Shown here: piece by piece, positions 2,278 to 58,244 of the stretch
Layout of the letters: every line of letters starts with the position of its first letter
Numbering within the stretch: position 1 is the first letter of the stretch
NCBI GenBank assembly: GCA_020629955.1
Contig: JAHDCI010000001.1
Span: 11,646-75,645, forward strand
Reading direction: 5' to 3'
From: Myxococcota bacterium
GTDB taxonomy: Bacteria; Myxococcota_A; Polyangia; Polyangiales; Houyiibacteriaceae
DNA: 64,000 nucleotides
The notes under the pieces: generated by a model
Told to the model about the DNA's origin: nothing
What the model saw: only the letters and a program-made list of their open reading frames with translations
Database searches by the model: none
Position numbers and translations under genes: made by a program

Positions 2278-3738
2278 CTACTCGCTCTCTTCGTTCGCGC
2301 CCTCGTCGTCCGCCGGAGCTTCCGCCGTCTCTGCTGTCTCTGCCTGCTCGCTAGGTTCTTCCGCCGCGTCGATTTCATCGCTTCCGTCTTGAACGGGAGC
2401 TTCCGGCCGGCGCACCGGGGGCCCGTCAGGAGCCGGTTCCACATTGGACTGCGCGAGCGCGTAGATATGGCGGTCGTCGGAACCGAAGATGACATGCCCT
2501 TCTCGGCTTAGAACGGGCGGTGCGTCGACGTCGGCGCCCACCTCGAAGACCCATCGGAGCTCCCCTTCCGGAGAGAGCGAGTAGAGGAAGTCGTCATGAG
2601 AACCGAAGTAGATCGCACCATCGGCGTCAACGATCGGTCCCGAGACAATCCCAACTTCCGTGCTCATTCGAGCGGCGGCGGTGCTAAAGCTCCAGCCTTC
2701 TTCTCCATCGTCGCAAGAGAGCGCCACGACGCGCGGATGAGGACCGAAGACCGGTACGAGAAGTTCATTGCGCGCGGAAAGCGAAGCTGGGCCTCGAACC
2801 ATACCGCCGACTTCTTTGGACCACTTCAGTTCACCGTTGCGAGTGAGCGCGTAGACATTGCGGTCATCGCTCCCAAAGTAAATCGTGCCGTCGTCCCCGA
2901 TGACCGGGCTCGAGTCGTTATCGTCGCCCGTCCGATACGCCCAGCGCATCCGGCCATCGGGCGCGATTGCGTAGAAGTGATCGTCCTGAGAACCGACGTA
3001 CACGGTTCCATCCGAGTCGACGGCAGGAGTCGCGAAGATCTTCTCGCGAGCGGAGAAGCGCCACTGCACTTCCCCTTCGAGCGTCATGGACCAAACATCG
3101 AGCCCTGCAGCGAACACGATGCGTCCATCCGGCGTCTCGATTAAGCCCGTGTCCGCGTCATCCTCGGTGTTCATCCGCCACCTTTCGCGCCCACCTCGCG
3201 TAAAGGAGAAGACCATTCCTGCGTCACTACCAATGTAGAGGTTTCCATCCGAAGCGAGGAGCGCGGTGGAGTAGATCGGACCGCCAAGGTTCTCTTGCCA
3301 GCGAATGTTGCCGGCGGGGTTGATCGCTCGGAACGTTCCGTCGTGACTGCCGACGAAGATGTCGCCGCCGAGGTCGACGATCGCCTGCGCGGTGGTGCGC
3401 CCCCGCGTTTCAACACGCCAGAGAAGCCCCGCCCGTGAGGGGCCCCGCTGCGCAAATCGGCCCGCGTGACGAGCGCCACCCCGATACGCGCCGGGCGGAT
3501 CTTCGCTAAGCTCTCCAACCGCCAACTCCGAGCGGTCCTCTTGGTCCGCTTCGTCACCGGGTCCGTAGACGCGGATCGCCGTACCTGGGGTTGGCCCCGC
3601 GGTGTGGTTTTGCTCTTGCGAGGGATCGTCCTTCATCCAGAGCGCCACGACGGCGCCGCCGGCGACGATCCACATAAGGGCGATGGCGATATTCTTGCGC
3701 TGCACGTTGCTCCTAACGAAGAGGGCGGACTCTGGCAC
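2278..3738 (-). CDS. Membrane-anchored PQQ-like (BamB-type) beta-propeller repeat protein
   Basis: It has an N-terminal TM helix (IAIALMWIVAGGAVVALW). Repeated blades match the PQQ-like repeat pattern: GNLYIGSDAGMVFSF, DGTVYVGSQDDHFYAI, DGTIYFGSDDRNVYAL, GAIYFGSHDDFLYSL. Confidence 0.75.
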   Translation of the reverse strand: MPESALFVRSNVQRKNIAIALMWIVAGGAVVALWMKDDPSQEQNHTAGPTPGTAIRVYGPGDEADQEDRSELAVGELSEDPPGAYRGGARHAGRFAQRGPSRAGLLWRVETRGRTTAQAIVDLGGDIFVGSHDGTFRAINPAGNIRWQENLGGPIYSTALLASDGNLYIGSDAGMVFSFTRGGRERWRMNTEDDADTGLIETPDGRIVFAAGLDVWSMTLEGEVQWRFSAREKIFATPAVDSDGTVYVGSQDDHFYAIAPDGRMRWAYRTGDDNDSSPVIGDDGTIYFGSDDRNVYALTRNGELKWSKEVGGMVRGPASLSARNELLVPVFGPHPRVVALSCDDGEEGWSFSTAAARMSTEVGIVSGPIVDADGAIYFGSHDDFLYSLSPEGELRWVFEVGADVDAPPVLSREGHVIFGSDDRHIYALAQSNVEPAPDGPPVRRPEAPVQDGSDEIDAAEEPSEQAETAETAEAPADDEGANEESE

Positions 3739-10139: not shown

Positions 10140-10463
10140 ATGAAGCACGTTATTGAGCACGACCTCGATATGGAAACCGCGAAGCTCGCGGCCGATAAAG
10201 CGTACGAATCTTACCGGGAGCGCTTCGCGAAATATCAGCCCACCGCAAACTGGGCCAGCGATCGGCACTGCGATGTCACCTTCACCGTGAAGGGTGTGAC
10301 GCTCGAGGGCAGCATCGATCTCGAGCCGAACAAGGTTCTCATGGACCTCGACGTTCCGCTCCTCTTTCGCCCATTCAAAAAGCTCGCGATGGGCATCGTT
10401 CAGGAAGAGATCGACACGTGGCTCCAAAAGGCGCGCCGCGGAGAACTGAAGGCCGAGGAGTAG
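10140..10463 (+). CDS. Small protein resembling the putative polyhydroxyalkanoic-acid system family (PHA_gran_rgn-like)
   Basis: It is 107 aa. The pattern (I/V)EH.L..E.A...A.K..E.Y..RF....P...W..D...V.F.V.G....G.I.L....V.MDL.VP.L..PFK is as I recall it for that family. It has an AAGGAA RBS. Confidence 0.45.
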   Translation: MKHVIEHDLDMETAKLAADKAYESYRERFAKYQPTANWASDRHCDVTFTVKGVTLEGSIDLEPNKVLMDLDVPLLFRPFKKLAMGIVQEEIDTWLQKARRGELKAEE

Positions 10464-53495: not shown

Positions 53496-53551
53496 AAACC
53501 GAAGAGATGGAATGAGTGCAGCGGCACGTCGTGGGGGCACGGCTGGAGAAG

Positions 53552-54160
53552 ATGACGAAAGCACCAAATCCACTCAAAGTACTGGTTGTCGATGACGACC
53601 GGGAAATTCTGGACTTCATGCAGACCTTCCTTACGGGGGAAGGCTGTGAAGTTGAGACCTTGAGCGATCCATCGAGCGCGGAATCCGCGGTTCGGGCGAA
53701 ATCGTTCCACATGGTGGTTCTCGACCTGATGATGCCCGATATGGACGGCGTCCAGGTTCTTGAACGGATCCGAAAGGTCGATGACGATATCGCCGTCGTG
53801 ATCTTCACCGGCTACCCGTCTCTCGAGACCGCGGTGCAGTCGATGAAGCTTGACGCGATCGACTACCTGAAGAAGCCCTTCAATCCGCAAGCGTTCCGGG
53901 ATGTGATTGCCCGCGTGATGCAAAAGAAGGGATTGCTCCGCTCCCCGGAAGAGGAACTGCATCGTACGATCGGCGCCATTATTCGCTCGAATCGAAAAGA
54001 GCAGTCGCTGACGCTCAAGCAGATGGCCCGGCGCACGGGACTCAGCGTGTCCTTGCTCTCTCAGATCGAACGCGCGGAGTCGAGTGCAAGCATCAGCTCG
54101 CTCTATAAGATCGCGCGGGCGTTGGATGTTCGGGTCCGAGAGCTCTTCGGCGACTTCTAA
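53552..54160 (+). CDS. Response regulator with a receiver domain fused to an XRE-type (HTH_3) DNA-binding domain
   Basis: The receiver (REC) domain shows KVLVVDDD...VVLDLMMPDMDG...VVIFTGY...YLKKPF. The C-terminal HTH is IRSNRKEQSLTLKQMARRTGLSVSLLSQIERAESSASISSLYKIARALDVRVRELF. Confidence 0.8.
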   Translation: MTKAPNPLKVLVVDDDREILDFMQTFLTGEGCEVETLSDPSSAESAVRAKSFHMVVLDLMMPDMDGVQVLERIRKVDDDIAVVIFTGYPSLETAVQSMKLDAIDYLKKPFNPQAFRDVIARVMQKKGLLRSPEEELHRTIGAIIRSNRKEQSLTLKQMARRTGLSVSLLSQIERAESSASISSLYKIARALDVRVRELFGDF

Positions 54161-54187: not shown

Positions 54188-54219
54188 CAAAACGCCCTGG
54201 ACGAATCCAGGGCGTTTTT
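54188..54219. terminator. Bidirectional intrinsic terminator
   Basis: A 10-bp stem AACGCCCTGG-ACGAAT-CCAGGGCGTT has A-rich sequence 5' and a T run 3'. It lies between the convergent genes 53552..54160 (+) and 54270..54572 (-). Confidence 0.65.
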
Positions 54220-54269: not shown

Positions 54270-54572
54270 CTACTGCTGCGACTGGAGAACCGTACGCACG
54301 CCGCTCGATGCCTTGTCGACAAGCTTGCTCGCCAGCTCAACCTCTTGGGAGTAGCGGTAGACTTCCGCCTGCAGGACCAGCAACTCCTGCGGGCTTGTCT
54401 CCGCGCGACGACCGGCCCGACGAATATGGCGACGGGTTCGTTGCTCCAGTTCGCTGAGCGAGTGCACGTGCTCACGCAGTGCGTCGCCGAACGAGCGTTC
54501 AGGCTCGACGCGAGCTTCGGGTTTTGGGGAGACGGAATGAGTAACGCCGCGAGGGCTCTGGATCTGAGTCAT
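54270..54572 (-). CDS. Small protein with a T3SS inner-rod (SctI / PrgJ / YscI)-like C-terminus
   Basis: It is 100 aa. Its C-terminal ELLVLQAEVYRYSQEVELASKLVDKASSGVRTVLQSQ tracks PrgJ ELAISQEMISDYNLYVSMVSTLTRKGVGAVETLLRS and YscI LMLMQWSLIRITIQEELIAKTAGRMSQNVETLSK, both recalled from memory. The length also matches. Confidence 0.45.
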   Translation of the reverse strand: MTQIQSPRGVTHSVSPKPEARVEPERSFGDALREHVHSLSELEQRTRRHIRRAGRRAETSPQELLVLQAEVYRYSQEVELASKLVDKASSGVRTVLQSQQ

Positions 54573-54623
54573 GCTCAGTTCTCGGCCACCGCGGCGCTCA
54601 GTTTCGTAAAAAACGACTCTTCT

Positions 54624-57245
54624 TTACGAAGCCTCCCACCAGGCGTCGACGGGTGCTGCAGGCTGCGACGGCGTCTCTTCGCCCTCACCACCTTCGGTGG
54701 ATTCGCCACTATCGGCAGGCGGTTGTGATGGCGTGTTGCCTTCCGAGGGCGCGGCCTCGCCGTTTTGCTGAAGCCACCAAGGCTCGCCTGTTTCTCCGCC
54801 GTTGCCTTCTCCTGGCTGCGTCTGTCCCGGTTGCGCTTGTCCAGGCTGGGTCTGCGCGGGCTGGGTCTGTCCAGGCTGAGTCTGTGCAGGCTGCGTCTGC
54901 GTGGGTTGCGCGGGCTGAGTTTGTGCGGGCTGCGCGGCGTGACGGACTTCCCACCACGGCCGGCCCACAAAGCCCGCCGCATTTCCGAGAGACTCGGCCC
55001 GCGACCACCAGTGCGCGTAAGCGGGCTGGTTGCTTCGGGGCGTATTCCCAGTGCTGCTTCGGAGACGAATCGAGAAACTCGCGCGCTGCCGGCGCTGCTG
55101 AATCCCGGGGAAGCGAAGCTCCGCGATCGTTGGCGAGAGGCACTCGACAAACTCCGGCGTATTCGGCGCGTAGCGGAACTCCGCGGTGTTGCCCTCTTGC
55201 TCGATGATAAAGGCAAAGCGAACCGTCCCAAGCTCTGGGTTGCGTTCCATTTCGCCTTCAACGCAGCCACGGAGAGCGTCGGTCTGCGCCATAAAGACCT
55301 CATTGATCTGCTCTTGCGTCAGACGCTCCGGACGCGCAGCGCGTTCTTCGGCCTCGGCTTCCGCGGCCGCCAGCGCTTCCGCTTCAACGCGCGCAGCCTC
55401 TTCGTTTTCGAGGCGCGTCGTCTCCGCCTGGAAGATCGCGGTAATCGATTCCTTCAAAGGCGCGATCGTGCGGCCGCGGTCGGCAAAGGTCTGAAGCGAC
55501 GCACGCCCCTCGTCTCCGCCATGCCGGAAGATTCCTTCGGCCGCAATCGTGAGCGGGTCCATGTTCTCCGCAAAGGTGGAGTCCGCGTGATAGAGGGTGA
55601 GGAATTGCTGAAGCGGACCGACCACGGACTCGTCACCAAGCTCAACAATCGCGCGAAGAACGAGCGCGAGCTGGTCCGCTGGTGTCTCGTGATCAAAGAG
55701 GTGCGCGATAAGTTGGCTCAGCGCCTCGCTCTTCTCTTGTTCGAGCAGCGCCGGCACCAGAAGCGTGAAAGGTGGCGAGCGTGTCTCATCGAGGTAGTCG
55801 TAAGAAGTGTTTAATGCCGCGACCAGGTAGTCAGCGCCTGGTTCGCGCGTGCGCAGCGACTCACGGATCGCGTCGCGAAGCGCGCCCGGGGTTGAACGTT
55901 GCGCATAGAGATCGAGCAGCCCCCGCGTGATCTCTGGATCCTCCATCCCGGCAAGTTGACCGATGGCATACGATCGCGCCGCAACGAGGCGGTTGTCAGG
56001 ATCGCCGGCAAGCTCGAGGAGCGACGTCGAGAGATCCCTCGCTTCGCCAGGGTTCGACTCGGGAGCAAATCCGTTCACGTCAAACCCTGCGGACGCAAGC
56101 TCGAGCTCCGCGCCCCCAGTCCAAGCCGAGTTGCCCGTCGACGCATCGAGGAAGTTCGCCCGGCCGCGCTCTCCGAGCGTGAAAAGACCACCACTCAGGA
56201 CCTGAGCCCGGATCACATCCTGCTCGAGGATCCGCGCCCATTCCATCTCGCCAGTCGTCGCGTCATACGCAAAAACATAACGGTAATAGACGAGATAGAC
56301 GCGGCTGGACATGAGCGCGAGTCCATTCTCCCCGGGAGCCGGCGCCACGTAGAAGCGGATCCGTCCCCGCGCGGAGCGAGTACCTGGCGTGGGAATGAAG
56401 ACATCGTCTTCGATCGCCGGCTCACGTGGCGCGCCGGTGACCGGATTGCCAACGTACGTGGATTCGCTCTGACGCCCCGTCGCCGAACTCACATCGAGAC
56501 GGTATATGCCATTGGAGCCGTAGTACACGCCGCTCGGTTCTTCACGCATCCACGCGAGAACGTCGTCGGTCGTCCGAATACGCGTAACTTCATTCCCGGT
56601 CTGCAGGTTGAGGATCGCGATATTCTGCTTGTCCCACGGAATCATCGCATAGCCGCCGCGCGCGACGGGACGCCCGAAGATGCCGGCGAGTTCGTGGTCC
56701 CAAATCGCTCGACCCGAACGCGCATCCACTGCGAACGCATGGCCCACGCGAGTCGCTCCGCCCGAACCGCCGATCGAGAGCACGTAGAGAAGCGTATTGC
56801 CATCCCGCGATGCGCCGACATAGGCGAGCGTATCAAGCTCCTTCTGCCAAAGCGTTTGTCCCGTTTCGGTGGACACCGCGACAATATTCTCACGCGTGCT
56901 GACCATGGTGATATCGCCGAGCACCTCGGGACGCGTCTGTACGTCGAGATTTGTGCGCCACATCTCCGCACCATCGAGCCCAAACGCGACCAACGCGCGC
57001 TCCCCAGCTTCGAGCGAGTGGGTGGACGCGACGATCAGCGGCTGCCCCGAGCTATTGCCGGGTGCGTCCGCAACTTCTCCACCCGCGGCACCGACGATCG
57101 GGCCCAACGTCTCAGCGTCGTTGTCCGGGAACCGAGGGTCGAACGCCGGACGTAGCGCGACCGTGTAGCAGCCCGAAAGAAGGACGAGAACGAAGCTGAG
57201 GGCGAGCAGGGAACTCGCAGGGAGGTTTGTGTTCGAGAACTTCAT
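54624..57245 (-). CDS. 873-aa lipoprotein: PQQ-like beta-propeller + HEAT-like helical region + AgmX/PglI-type TonB-C-like domain + Q/T/P-rich repeat tail
   Basis: The lipobox is LVLLSGC YT. Propeller-type blades are present (GQTLWQKEL..., GRAIWDHEL..., GEMEWARIL...). A two-Cys C-terminal domain follows (LRGCVEGEM...VRFAFIIEQEGN...FVECL...LRFPG). The tail carries QPAQTQPGQTQ repeats and ends WWEAS. Confidence 0.75.
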   Translation of the reverse strand: MKFSNTNLPASSLLALSFVLVLLSGCYTVALRPAFDPRFPDNDAETLGPIVGAAGGEVADAPGNSSGQPLIVASTHSLEAGERALVAFGLDGAEMWRTNLDVQTRPEVLGDITMVSTRENIVAVSTETGQTLWQKELDTLAYVGASRDGNTLLYVLSIGGSGGATRVGHAFAVDARSGRAIWDHELAGIFGRPVARGGYAMIPWDKQNIAILNLQTGNEVTRIRTTDDVLAWMREEPSGVYYGSNGIYRLDVSSATGRQSESTYVGNPVTGAPREPAIEDDVFIPTPGTRSARGRIRFYVAPAPGENGLALMSSRVYLVYYRYVFAYDATTGEMEWARILEQDVIRAQVLSGGLFTLGERGRANFLDASTGNSAWTGGAELELASAGFDVNGFAPESNPGEARDLSTSLLELAGDPDNRLVAARSYAIGQLAGMEDPEITRGLLDLYAQRSTPGALRDAIRESLRTREPGADYLVAALNTSYDYLDETRSPPFTLLVPALLEQEKSEALSQLIAHLFDHETPADQLALVLRAIVELGDESVVGPLQQFLTLYHADSTFAENMDPLTIAAEGIFRHGGDEGRASLQTFADRGRTIAPLKESITAIFQAETTRLENEEAARVEAEALAAAEAEAEERAARPERLTQEQINEVFMAQTDALRGCVEGEMERNPELGTVRFAFIIEQEGNTAEFRYAPNTPEFVECLSPTIAELRFPGIQQRRQRASFSIRLRSSTGNTPRSNQPAYAHWWSRAESLGNAAGFVGRPWWEVRHAAQPAQTQPAQPTQTQPAQTQPGQTQPAQTQPGQAQPGQTQPGEGNGGETGEPWWLQQNGEAAPSEGNTPSQPPADSGESTEGGEGEETPSQPAAPVDAWWEAS
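54810..54938 (-). repeat. Coding low-complexity repeat (about 15-nt units encoding QTQPA/QTQPG)
   Basis: Direct reading of CTGGGTCTG(C/T)(G/C)C(G/A)GG-type units gives the translation AAQPAQTQPAQPTQTQPAQTQPGQTQPAQTQPGQAQPGQTQPG. Confidence 0.8.
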
Positions 57246-58135
57246 GACGCACCTCCAGGGCGGATCGTTTCACCGGAGGCTTGCTCCGGAATGCGCACCA
57301 TCGTGTCGCGCACGAGGTCGCGGAGTTCTCGAACTTCGCGATCGCGGCGACGGAAACGCTCAGGGAAGGTGTTGAGGTACGATTGCAAGAAACGGCGGAC
57401 CATGACGCCCGCAACTTCGCCAAGACGTTCGACGATCGCGGTCTTGGTTTCGAGCGAGATATCGTCGCGGCGCAGGAGATGTTCGTACCCAGAGAGCATG
57501 ACACCAAGAGGCTCGTTGCCGAGGAAACCATTGTAGCGATCCACCGCCTCGTTCGGAGCGAGCTGGCCAATCGCGATGGCGGCTTCAACCACGTTTCGTT
57601 CGAACGCGCGGAAGAGAAGCTCGAGCGAATCCGTCGCGCCACGCTCTCCAAGCGCGATCGCGGCGACGCCTCGAATCCCGCGGTCACTATCGCGGAGGCC
57701 CGCTTCGAGGATCGGCACCACGCGCGCATCTTCGATCGCGGCCAGGGCGTGGTACGCCCTGCGGCGAGCGCCCGGTCGGCGGTGATGCGTGAACTCCGTG
57801 AGGACCTCAATCCCCTCCACCTTCTTTAACGAGCCGAGCGCTGCGAGCGCGTGATCCGTAAGATGGTCGGATTGCCCGGAGCGCAAGAGCGTTGCGATCG
57901 GTTCAATCACCTGCGCATCGTCGATGACGACGAGTTGGTCGATCGCCTCTCGGACCTGGTCGGCATCTTCGCTCTGAAGACGCTCGACGACCTGGGGAAG
58001 GTCCCGAATCGTCGGCGGAGCAGAAGCCGTTTCCCCCGAATTTTCCTGGTTTTCCTGTGCTGCACGGCGCTGTCCAAGAACCGAACTTGGAACGAGCAAT
58101 GAGGCGACAAGAGCGAATAACGTAAAGGCGCGCAT
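57242..58135 (-). CDS. Secreted HEAT-repeat protein
   Basis: The internal ATG gives the signal peptide MRAFTLFALVASLLVPSSVLGQ. HEAT motifs are present (VREAIDQLV, HALAALGSL, RRRAYHALAAI, IRGVAAIALGE). Its stop overlaps the start of the 873-aa gene (ATGA). Confidence 0.7.
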   Translation of the reverse strand: MRAFTLFALVASLLVPSSVLGQRRAAQENQENSGETASAPPTIRDLPQVVERLQSEDADQVREAIDQLVVIDDAQVIEPIATLLRSGQSDHLTDHALAALGSLKKVEGIEVLTEFTHHRRPGARRRAYHALAAIEDARVVPILEAGLRDSDRGIRGVAAIALGERGATDSLELLFRAFERNVVEAAIAIGQLAPNEAVDRYNGFLGNEPLGVMLSGYEHLLRRDDISLETKTAIVERLGEVAGVMVRRFLQSYLNTFPERFRRRDREVRELRDLVRDTMVRIPEQASGETIRPGGAS

Positions 58136-58244
58136 GGTTGATTGACCCCCGGTCAGCCAATCCCGTAGCACAATGCTCAAGTTCGCAAAGTGGTCGATGT
58201 TTTCGTTCGGGAAACCGCTGCCGCGCGAATGTCGGCGCGCGTAT

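Follow-up and report, generated by a model that had tools for sequence, protein, structure and literature searches.

[quoted passage not shown] The gene, coding for a protein of 100 aa, occupies positions 54270–54572 on the minus strand of a 64,000-nt stretch of a contig from a Myxococcota bacterium (further referred to as the window). The initial annotation considered it an orphan SctI-like gene, the last one in an operon with genes for a HEAT-repeat protein and an 873-aa lipoprotein, and named three possible explanations: a component of a dispersed apparatus, an exapted rod-like polymer of a new envelope machine, and convergence of a helical hairpin.

The open reading frame and its translation proved to be exact (minus strand, ATG start, 100 codons), and both the SctI profiles and the AF2 model place the product among hairpin proteins of the SctI/SctF superfamily. 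The NCBIfam model NF038054 (T3SS_SctI) matched the protein with E = 9.7e-9 and 35.2 bits, residues 27–98 being aligned to model positions 3–76 of 76, and the Pfam model PF17001 (T3SS_basalb_I) matched with E = 2.4e-5 and 25.1 bits. The E-values for TIGR02497 and for the PrgJ model PRK15325 were 0.0015 and 0.02, respectively, the C-termini being aligned end to end in the latter case; all SctI model matches on the protein extend to the C-terminus of the model. The E-values of NF038054 and PF17001 are significant, but no SctI score of the protein (NF038054, PF17001, TIGR02497 or the PrgJ model) reached its curated cutoff, which equals 39 bits for NF038054 and 32.4 bits for PF17001. The profile of the family described below matched the structure of the Shigella SctI protein (MxiI, 8axk) with E = 4.4e-5 over residues 19–97 of 97, and the hhalign comparison of the family with MxiI gave E = 7.5e-5 over 75 columns. 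The loop motif [LM]-[ND]-P-x-x-L-x-x-LQ is common to the family and the SctI models.

The AF2 model of the protein (pLDDT 82) comprises a disordered segment (residues 1–27) and two helices (residues 28–55 and 61–99). When this model was compared with PDB using Foldseek, the best matches were MxiI, PrgJ and needle chains. None of them was significant, as is expected for a hairpin, and designed helical hairpins scored equally well. Taken together, the profiles, the end-to-end alignment of the C-termini and the disordered N-terminus followed by a two-helix hairpin agree with the SctI-like size and C-terminal signature noted in the initial annotation, and, as judged from its sequence, the small protein is a real, divergent member of the SctI/SctF helical-hairpin superfamily. 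It shares with SctI proteins (PrgJ, MxiI, YscI, HrpB) the length of about 100 aa, the disordered N-terminus, the C-terminal two-helix hairpin, the C-terminal helix aligned to the very end of the protein and the loop motif P-x-x-L-x-x-LQ. It differs from them in having scores below the curated cutoffs, in that its gene was not found beside sctF, sctJ or export-apparatus genes, in the sigma-28-type promoter and the link to a FliA-like sigma gene considered below, and in the C-terminal 40 residues, which are conserved in its family far beyond the SctI norm.

The first search yielded 15 relatives with these 40 residues near-invariant (LLALQAGVYRYSQEVELASKLVDKASSAVKTTLQSQQ). All 15 were matched by PF17001 and six of them by the needle family PF09392. 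An exhaustive profile search returned 1,295 representatives at E ≤ 1e-3 and 765 at E ≤ 1e-10, the representatives corresponding to clusters at 50% identity (about 1,300). Among 141 diverse members, 82 were matched by NF038054, and the window protein had the best SctI score; none of the 141 was matched by FlgM or FliE profiles, and a phmmer search for FliE over the loci and the window gave no match either. The 77 genome loci recovered all come from Myxococcota MAGs. Named carriers among them are Polyangiales, Polyangiaceae, Labilithrix, Sandaracinus and Nannocystis, that is, Polyangia. Loci beyond these 77 were added from contig look-ups. Searches with two peptide patterns returned no representative of a cultured myxobacterial species among the 77 loci; Sandaracinus amylolyticus likewise was not returned. 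The small gene thus belongs to a large unnamed family, so far found only in Myxococcota MAGs.

Gene adjacency in the loci was derived from homology matches. Of 83 non-redundant loci, 71 have a gene of the sigma-70 family at a distance of at most 2 kb from the small gene. In 57 loci this gene precedes the small gene in the same orientation, with a median gap of 49 nt; in about 14 the two are convergent and their stop codons nearly touch, and in one they are divergent. No sigma gene was found nearby in eight loci with adequate flanks, the window included. The best match of the linked sigma factors is TIGR02479 (FliA/WhiG), with E-values from 3e-28 to 4e-36 and scores of 99–125 bits against the cutoff of 189.6. 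FliA from E. coli aligns with them over the full length at 33–34% identity and matched in 76 loci (E down to 1.5e-27). A gene for a TPR protein of 215–250 aa accompanies both the small gene and the sigma gene in at least 18 loci (e.g. L006:9161–9916, L008:10622–11368, L097:8064–8711). The similarity of this protein to LcrH/SycD and SctY chaperones is weak and at the generic TPR level (E = 1e-3 to 1e-4).

A different upstream neighbour, a Ser/Thr protein kinase gene instead of the sigma gene, was observed in L085 (8477–10258), and also in L070, L073 and L080. In L085 the kinase and SctI-like frames are joined in one 593-aa ORF, probably owing to a frameshift in a long-read assembly and not to a true fusion.

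Upstream of the family gene we observed a bipartite motif conserved in most loci, (A)CGCAAC(T/C)-N14-GCCGAT(A/G). Its strict form is found in the 120 nt preceding the small gene in 17 of 79 loci and only eight times elsewhere in 2.54 Mb, and at least seven of these eight sites precede the same gene (longer variants or an unpredicted start) or a co-clustered gene. With a PWM, a score of 14 or higher was obtained in 39 of 67 loci. The modal position of the upstream box is about −38 (the range is roughly from −37 to −51), and the last base of the downstream box is mostly at −7 or −8 relative to the start codon. Some of the k-mers enriched upstream of the small gene, AAGTCGTGGGCGAG among them, reflect the conserved 3' end of the sigma coding sequence; these were set aside, and the intergenic bipartite motif alone was kept.

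The window copy, scored by the PWM and by the regular expression, has the −35-like box ACGAAAC (ACGCAAC in the family) at positions 54601–54607 and the −10-like box GCCGAGAA (GCCGAT[A/G] in the family) at positions 54579–54586, both on the minus strand. The PWM score of this promoter equals 12.6; it stands at the modal position, its −10-like box ending about 6–7 nt before the ATG, and has one mismatch per box relative to the family consensus. It is the sole motif site in the window at the modal position before a start codon. The second site, at 10169–10201, is inside a coding sequence and was taken as a chance occurrence.

A published sigma-28 promoter consists of TCTAAAG (−36 to −30) and GCCGATAA (−15 to −8) (PMC12784957), and the window −10 box GCCGAGAA matches the latter at seven of eight positions. 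Common to sigma-28 (FliA/WhiG) class-3-type promoters and the family promoter are the −10 sequence GCCGAT(A/G) and the 14-nt gap separating it from a 7-nt upstream box. The former have TAAA in the −35 box, whereas the family box ACGCAAC and the window box ACGAAAC both lack it. The small-gene promoter also differs in that it abuts the start codon and in that its hosts are not known as flagellated. With the sigma-28 geometry placed at the start codon, the transcript would begin at the A of the ATG or at an adjacent base, and we predict from the sequence a leaderless or near-leaderless mRNA for the small gene. The small gene, including the window copy, carries a conserved promoter of the sigma-28 (FliA/WhiG) architecture, and the link to a FliA/WhiG-type sigma factor together with this promoter is the dominant signal associated with it.

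Our tentative reading, held with some reserve, is that the SctI-derived hairpin protein is the signature target and a probable checkpoint partner of the FliA-like sigma factor. The sigma factor would transcribe the small gene, and the small protein may feed back on that sigma factor as a binding or checkpoint partner, in the manner of FlgM, though derived from a rod protein. The protein, with its disordered N-terminus and near-invariant C-terminal helix, may or may not still be exported. A two-gene module with no other conserved neighbour, as in sigma/anti-sigma pairs, suggests such a partner, and it is from gene linkage and by analogy that we infer the anti-sigma or checkpoint role.

FlgM acts as an anti-sigma-28 factor, is exported as a substrate of the flagellar T3SS, and is encoded by a gene that is in turn under sigma-28 control. 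Common to FlgM and the small protein are the small size, the disordered N-terminal part and the helical C-terminal part. Both genes are under a sigma-28-type promoter and tied to a FliA-type sigma factor, the window copy having the promoter and not the adjacency; the proposed feedback of the gene product on the cognate sigma factor would also be shared, as far as the analogy goes. The proteins differ in that the small protein has two long predicted helices, as opposed to the four short ones of FlgM, and in that no sequence similarity was found: hhalign of the family against E. coli FlgM gave E = 0.22 over 14 columns, and no FlgM likeness was seen in Pfam, NCBIfam or PDB.

This lack of sequence similarity speaks against the partnership with the sigma factor, as do several other observations. 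The sigma gene is convergent in the loci mentioned above and absent from the vicinity in eight others, the window among them. The window promoter is one base off in each box, and its −35 box is unlike the classical TAAA. The SctI scores, from which derivation from a rod protein is read, are all under the curated cutoffs. Finally, in two loci the neighbours resemble substrates, chaperones and switch proteins of T3SSs, which brings us to the question of an export apparatus.

Homologues of 17 Shigella Mxi-Spa and 19 E. coli flagellar proteins, taken from annotated records, were searched for by tblastn and phmmer in the 64-kb window and in 91 family loci (±10 kb). No SctV/FlhA, SctN/FliI, SctRST/FliPQR, SctJ/FliF, SctC, SctD or SctQ was found in the 91 loci or in the window. 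The sole matches in the loci were a FlhB C-terminal domain (L060 and L091) and FliA. The orphan status ascribed to the gene in the initial annotation is thus correct for the window and, given the absence of apparatus genes around the 91 loci as well, is a property of the whole family; the survey of homologue neighbourhoods that the annotation had named as a check shows loci devoid of the export apparatus, with a FliA/WhiG-like sigma gene as the usual neighbour.

The two loci mentioned share a conserved cluster around the SctI-like gene (L091:5837–11878, on a 3.98-Mb contig, and L060:1651–7729). It encodes an LcrH/SycD-like TPR protein of 144 aa (E = 7e-10), two hydrophobic proteins, one of them weakly SseC/SseD-like, a TPR lipoprotein, a 119-aa protein with a weak YscP match, a 195-aa protein resembling outer-membrane proteins, and a stand-alone FlhB/SctU C-terminal domain of 79 aa (E = 7e-20, above the Pfam cutoff). 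Within 10 kb in these loci there are no export gate, ATPase or ring genes. For this cluster, a real secretion role fits better than a purely regulatory one.

A protein of 173–228 aa with a Gly/Ser/Ala-rich middle is encoded in eight loci: L079 (6892–7503), L075, L076, L078, L082, L083, L060 and L091. By eye its C-terminus (…FNLQYLQLQ.KIQ.DTRQFNLISNIMKTKHDAAKNALNNVR) is similar to needle (SctF) proteins, and in L076, L078, L082 and L083 its gene is preceded by the GCAAC-N-GCCGATA promoter. The needle reading obtained no support from Pfam, NCBIfam or PDB profiles, the hhalign comparison with MxiH giving E = 0.018, and we treat it as no more than a lead.

Yet another arrangement was observed in L089 (188–2340), where the start of the SctI-like gene overlaps the stop codon of a 72-aa ORF having a homologue in L060. 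Next to it are genes for a PT-HINT polymorphic-toxin-type protein and a DMP19-like protein, and a phage-type integrase gene is located a few kb further on.

The main rival of the sigma-partner reading is that the small protein is a genuine SctI inner-rod or adaptor subunit of an apparatus encoded elsewhere in the genome, the core genes of the T3SS or T3SS* being dispersed. The FliA-like sigma factor would then be a regulator of late genes, just as sigma-28 drives late flagellar genes. The homology to SctI and the disordered N-terminus, typical of T3SS substrates, fit such a subunit, as do the chaperone-like, translocon-like and weakly YscP-like proteins and the FlhB C-terminal domain of the L091/L060 cluster, and so does the co-clustered gene that is needle-like by eye and has the same promoter in four loci. 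Against it are the absence of any core apparatus gene from the 91 loci (±10 kb) and the window and the missing profile support for the needle reading; we know of no precedent for a rod gene being located apart from its own apparatus in every case.

Literature data bear on this reading from both sides. The T3SS loci of M. xanthus include an inner-rod gene (PMC3459982), which favours it; published surveys, on the other hand, place T3SS and T3SS* core genes mainly in Myxococcia and rarely in Polyangia (PMC3459982, PMC10196010, PMC11821767, Microflora Danica preprint). The M. xanthus needleless T3SS* and T3SS(2) loci (Myxo-type NF-T3SS) contain no needle, secretin or translocon genes (PMC3459982, PMC12075869). 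The phylum and the inner-rod gene are common to those loci and the ones considered here; in M. xanthus, however, the rod gene is inside the apparatus cluster, whereas the small gene has no apparatus nearby and comes from a Polyangia-like lineage. On balance, we consider a rod subunit of a dispersed apparatus somewhat unlikely. It does not exclude the sigma-partner reading, since FlgM combines the roles of T3SS substrate and anti-sigma factor.

Much less probable is the explanation of the SctI resemblance by convergence or compositional similarity of helical hairpins, with no T3SS ancestry. It is consistent with all SctI scores being under the curated cutoffs and with insignificant Foldseek matches equalled by designed hairpins. 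On the other side, several independent profiles (Pfam, two NCBIfam SctI models, the PrgJ and needle models) and the solved SctI structure align end to end, with matching C-termini; the loop motif is shared; and neighbours of T3SS classes are present in L060 and L091, including the FlhB domain above the Pfam cutoff.

It remains to consider the neighbours of the gene in the window. The initial annotation described them properly. The 873-aa lipoprotein (54624–57245, minus strand) has a lipobox, a BamB/PQQ-like propeller (E = 1.5e-16), a helical region, a C-terminal domain of the GltJ/GltG/AgmX type (E = 1e-6 to 2e-7, under the cutoff) and a PQ-rich tail, which consists of QPAQTQP-like repeats. 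The HEAT-repeat protein with a signal peptide (57242–58180, minus strand; HEAT_2, E = 2e-13) is encoded by a gene whose last 4 nt overlap the 873-aa gene; its true start is probably near 58135. The C-terminal domain of the GltJ/GltG/AgmX type hints at TonB-like domains of gliding motility. A second BamB/PQQ-like propeller protein, of 486 aa, is encoded at 2278–3738 on the minus strand of the window, about 50 kb from the first.

On the other side, convergent to the small gene, profile matches identify a gene for a response regulator with an HTH_3 output domain (53516–54160, plus strand); no link between this gene and the small gene was found. Between the two there is a strong bidirectional terminator-like hairpin, CGCCCTGG-ACGAAT-CCAGGGCG (54189–54219), with an 8-bp GC-rich stem bordered by runs of A and T. 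A simple scan for consensus terminators did not list it. A stretch of 111 nt at the hairpin folds with −55.7 kcal/mol (z = −4.9).

The 873-aa protein has homologues in Sandaracinaceae/Polyangiales with 44–53% identity over nearly the full length, including one from the cultured Sandaracinus amylolyticus. In three Sandaracinaceae-type relatives (L092–L094: Sandaracinus amylolyticus and two MAGs) the HEAT and BamB-like genes form an overlapping pair, and no SctI-like gene follows it, the next gene being on the opposite strand. In one of these relatives, GCA_054027155.1, a different contig carries the SctI-like gene, flanked by a TPR gene and a convergently oriented sigma gene. This set of TPR gene, small gene and sigma gene recurs in the closest relative of the window protein, and none of the other family loci has the HEAT/BamB-like pair near the small gene. 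Since the pair is conserved without the small gene in three relatives, conservation of a three-gene operon is rejected, and the annotation of the small gene as the last gene of such an operon is not supported. The gene order in the closest relatives and the pair devoid of the small gene together indicate that the adjacency in the window is a lineage-specific relocation. In the window the small gene and its promoter are away from any sigma gene, behind the HEAT/BamB-like pair, and end at the bidirectional terminator: the small gene was relocated as a self-contained unit together with its own promoter, and we judge the pair not to belong to it.

The weakest of the explanations, an exapted rod-like polymer working with the HEAT protein and the BamB-like/TonB-C-like lipoprotein in a new envelope machine, finds support in the common strand of the three genes, the 51-nt gap after the 873-aa gene and the terminator located only past the small gene, but is very improbable and already largely refuted by the relatives that keep the pair with an opposite-strand gene beside it, by the lack of the pair in all other family loci, the closest relatives having the TPR and sigma genes instead, and by the separate conserved promoter of the small gene.

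For the window, this means that the apparent HEAT/BamB-like operon stems from a lineage-specific rearrangement. For the family, dozens of uncultured myxobacterial lineages link a homologue of a rod protein, with no apparatus genes nearby, to a sigma factor of the FliA type and to a promoter of the sigma-28 type. Myxococcota hold the earliest-branching non-flagellar T3SS and bear on the question of how the injectisome and the flagellum diverged. In a broader scenario, which is speculative and, as a whole, unlikely, a SctI homologue would have been recruited as a dedicated anti-sigma or secretion-checkpoint partner of a FliA-type sigma factor; the resulting two-gene module with its own leaderless sigma-28-like promoter, widespread in Polyangia-type Myxococcota and persisting in genomes that lack a type III export apparatus, would represent a regulatory remnant of the transition from flagellum to injectisome. 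If the T3SS is dispersed, a hidden secretion system exists in lineages thought to lack one, and calls of needleless or absent T3SS made from clustered core genes need to be revisited. If the small protein is a partner of the sigma factor, it represents a new type of sigma partner that originated from a structural component of secretion machinery. The promoter motif itself provides a concrete, testable regulon seed for an uncharacterised sigma subfamily.
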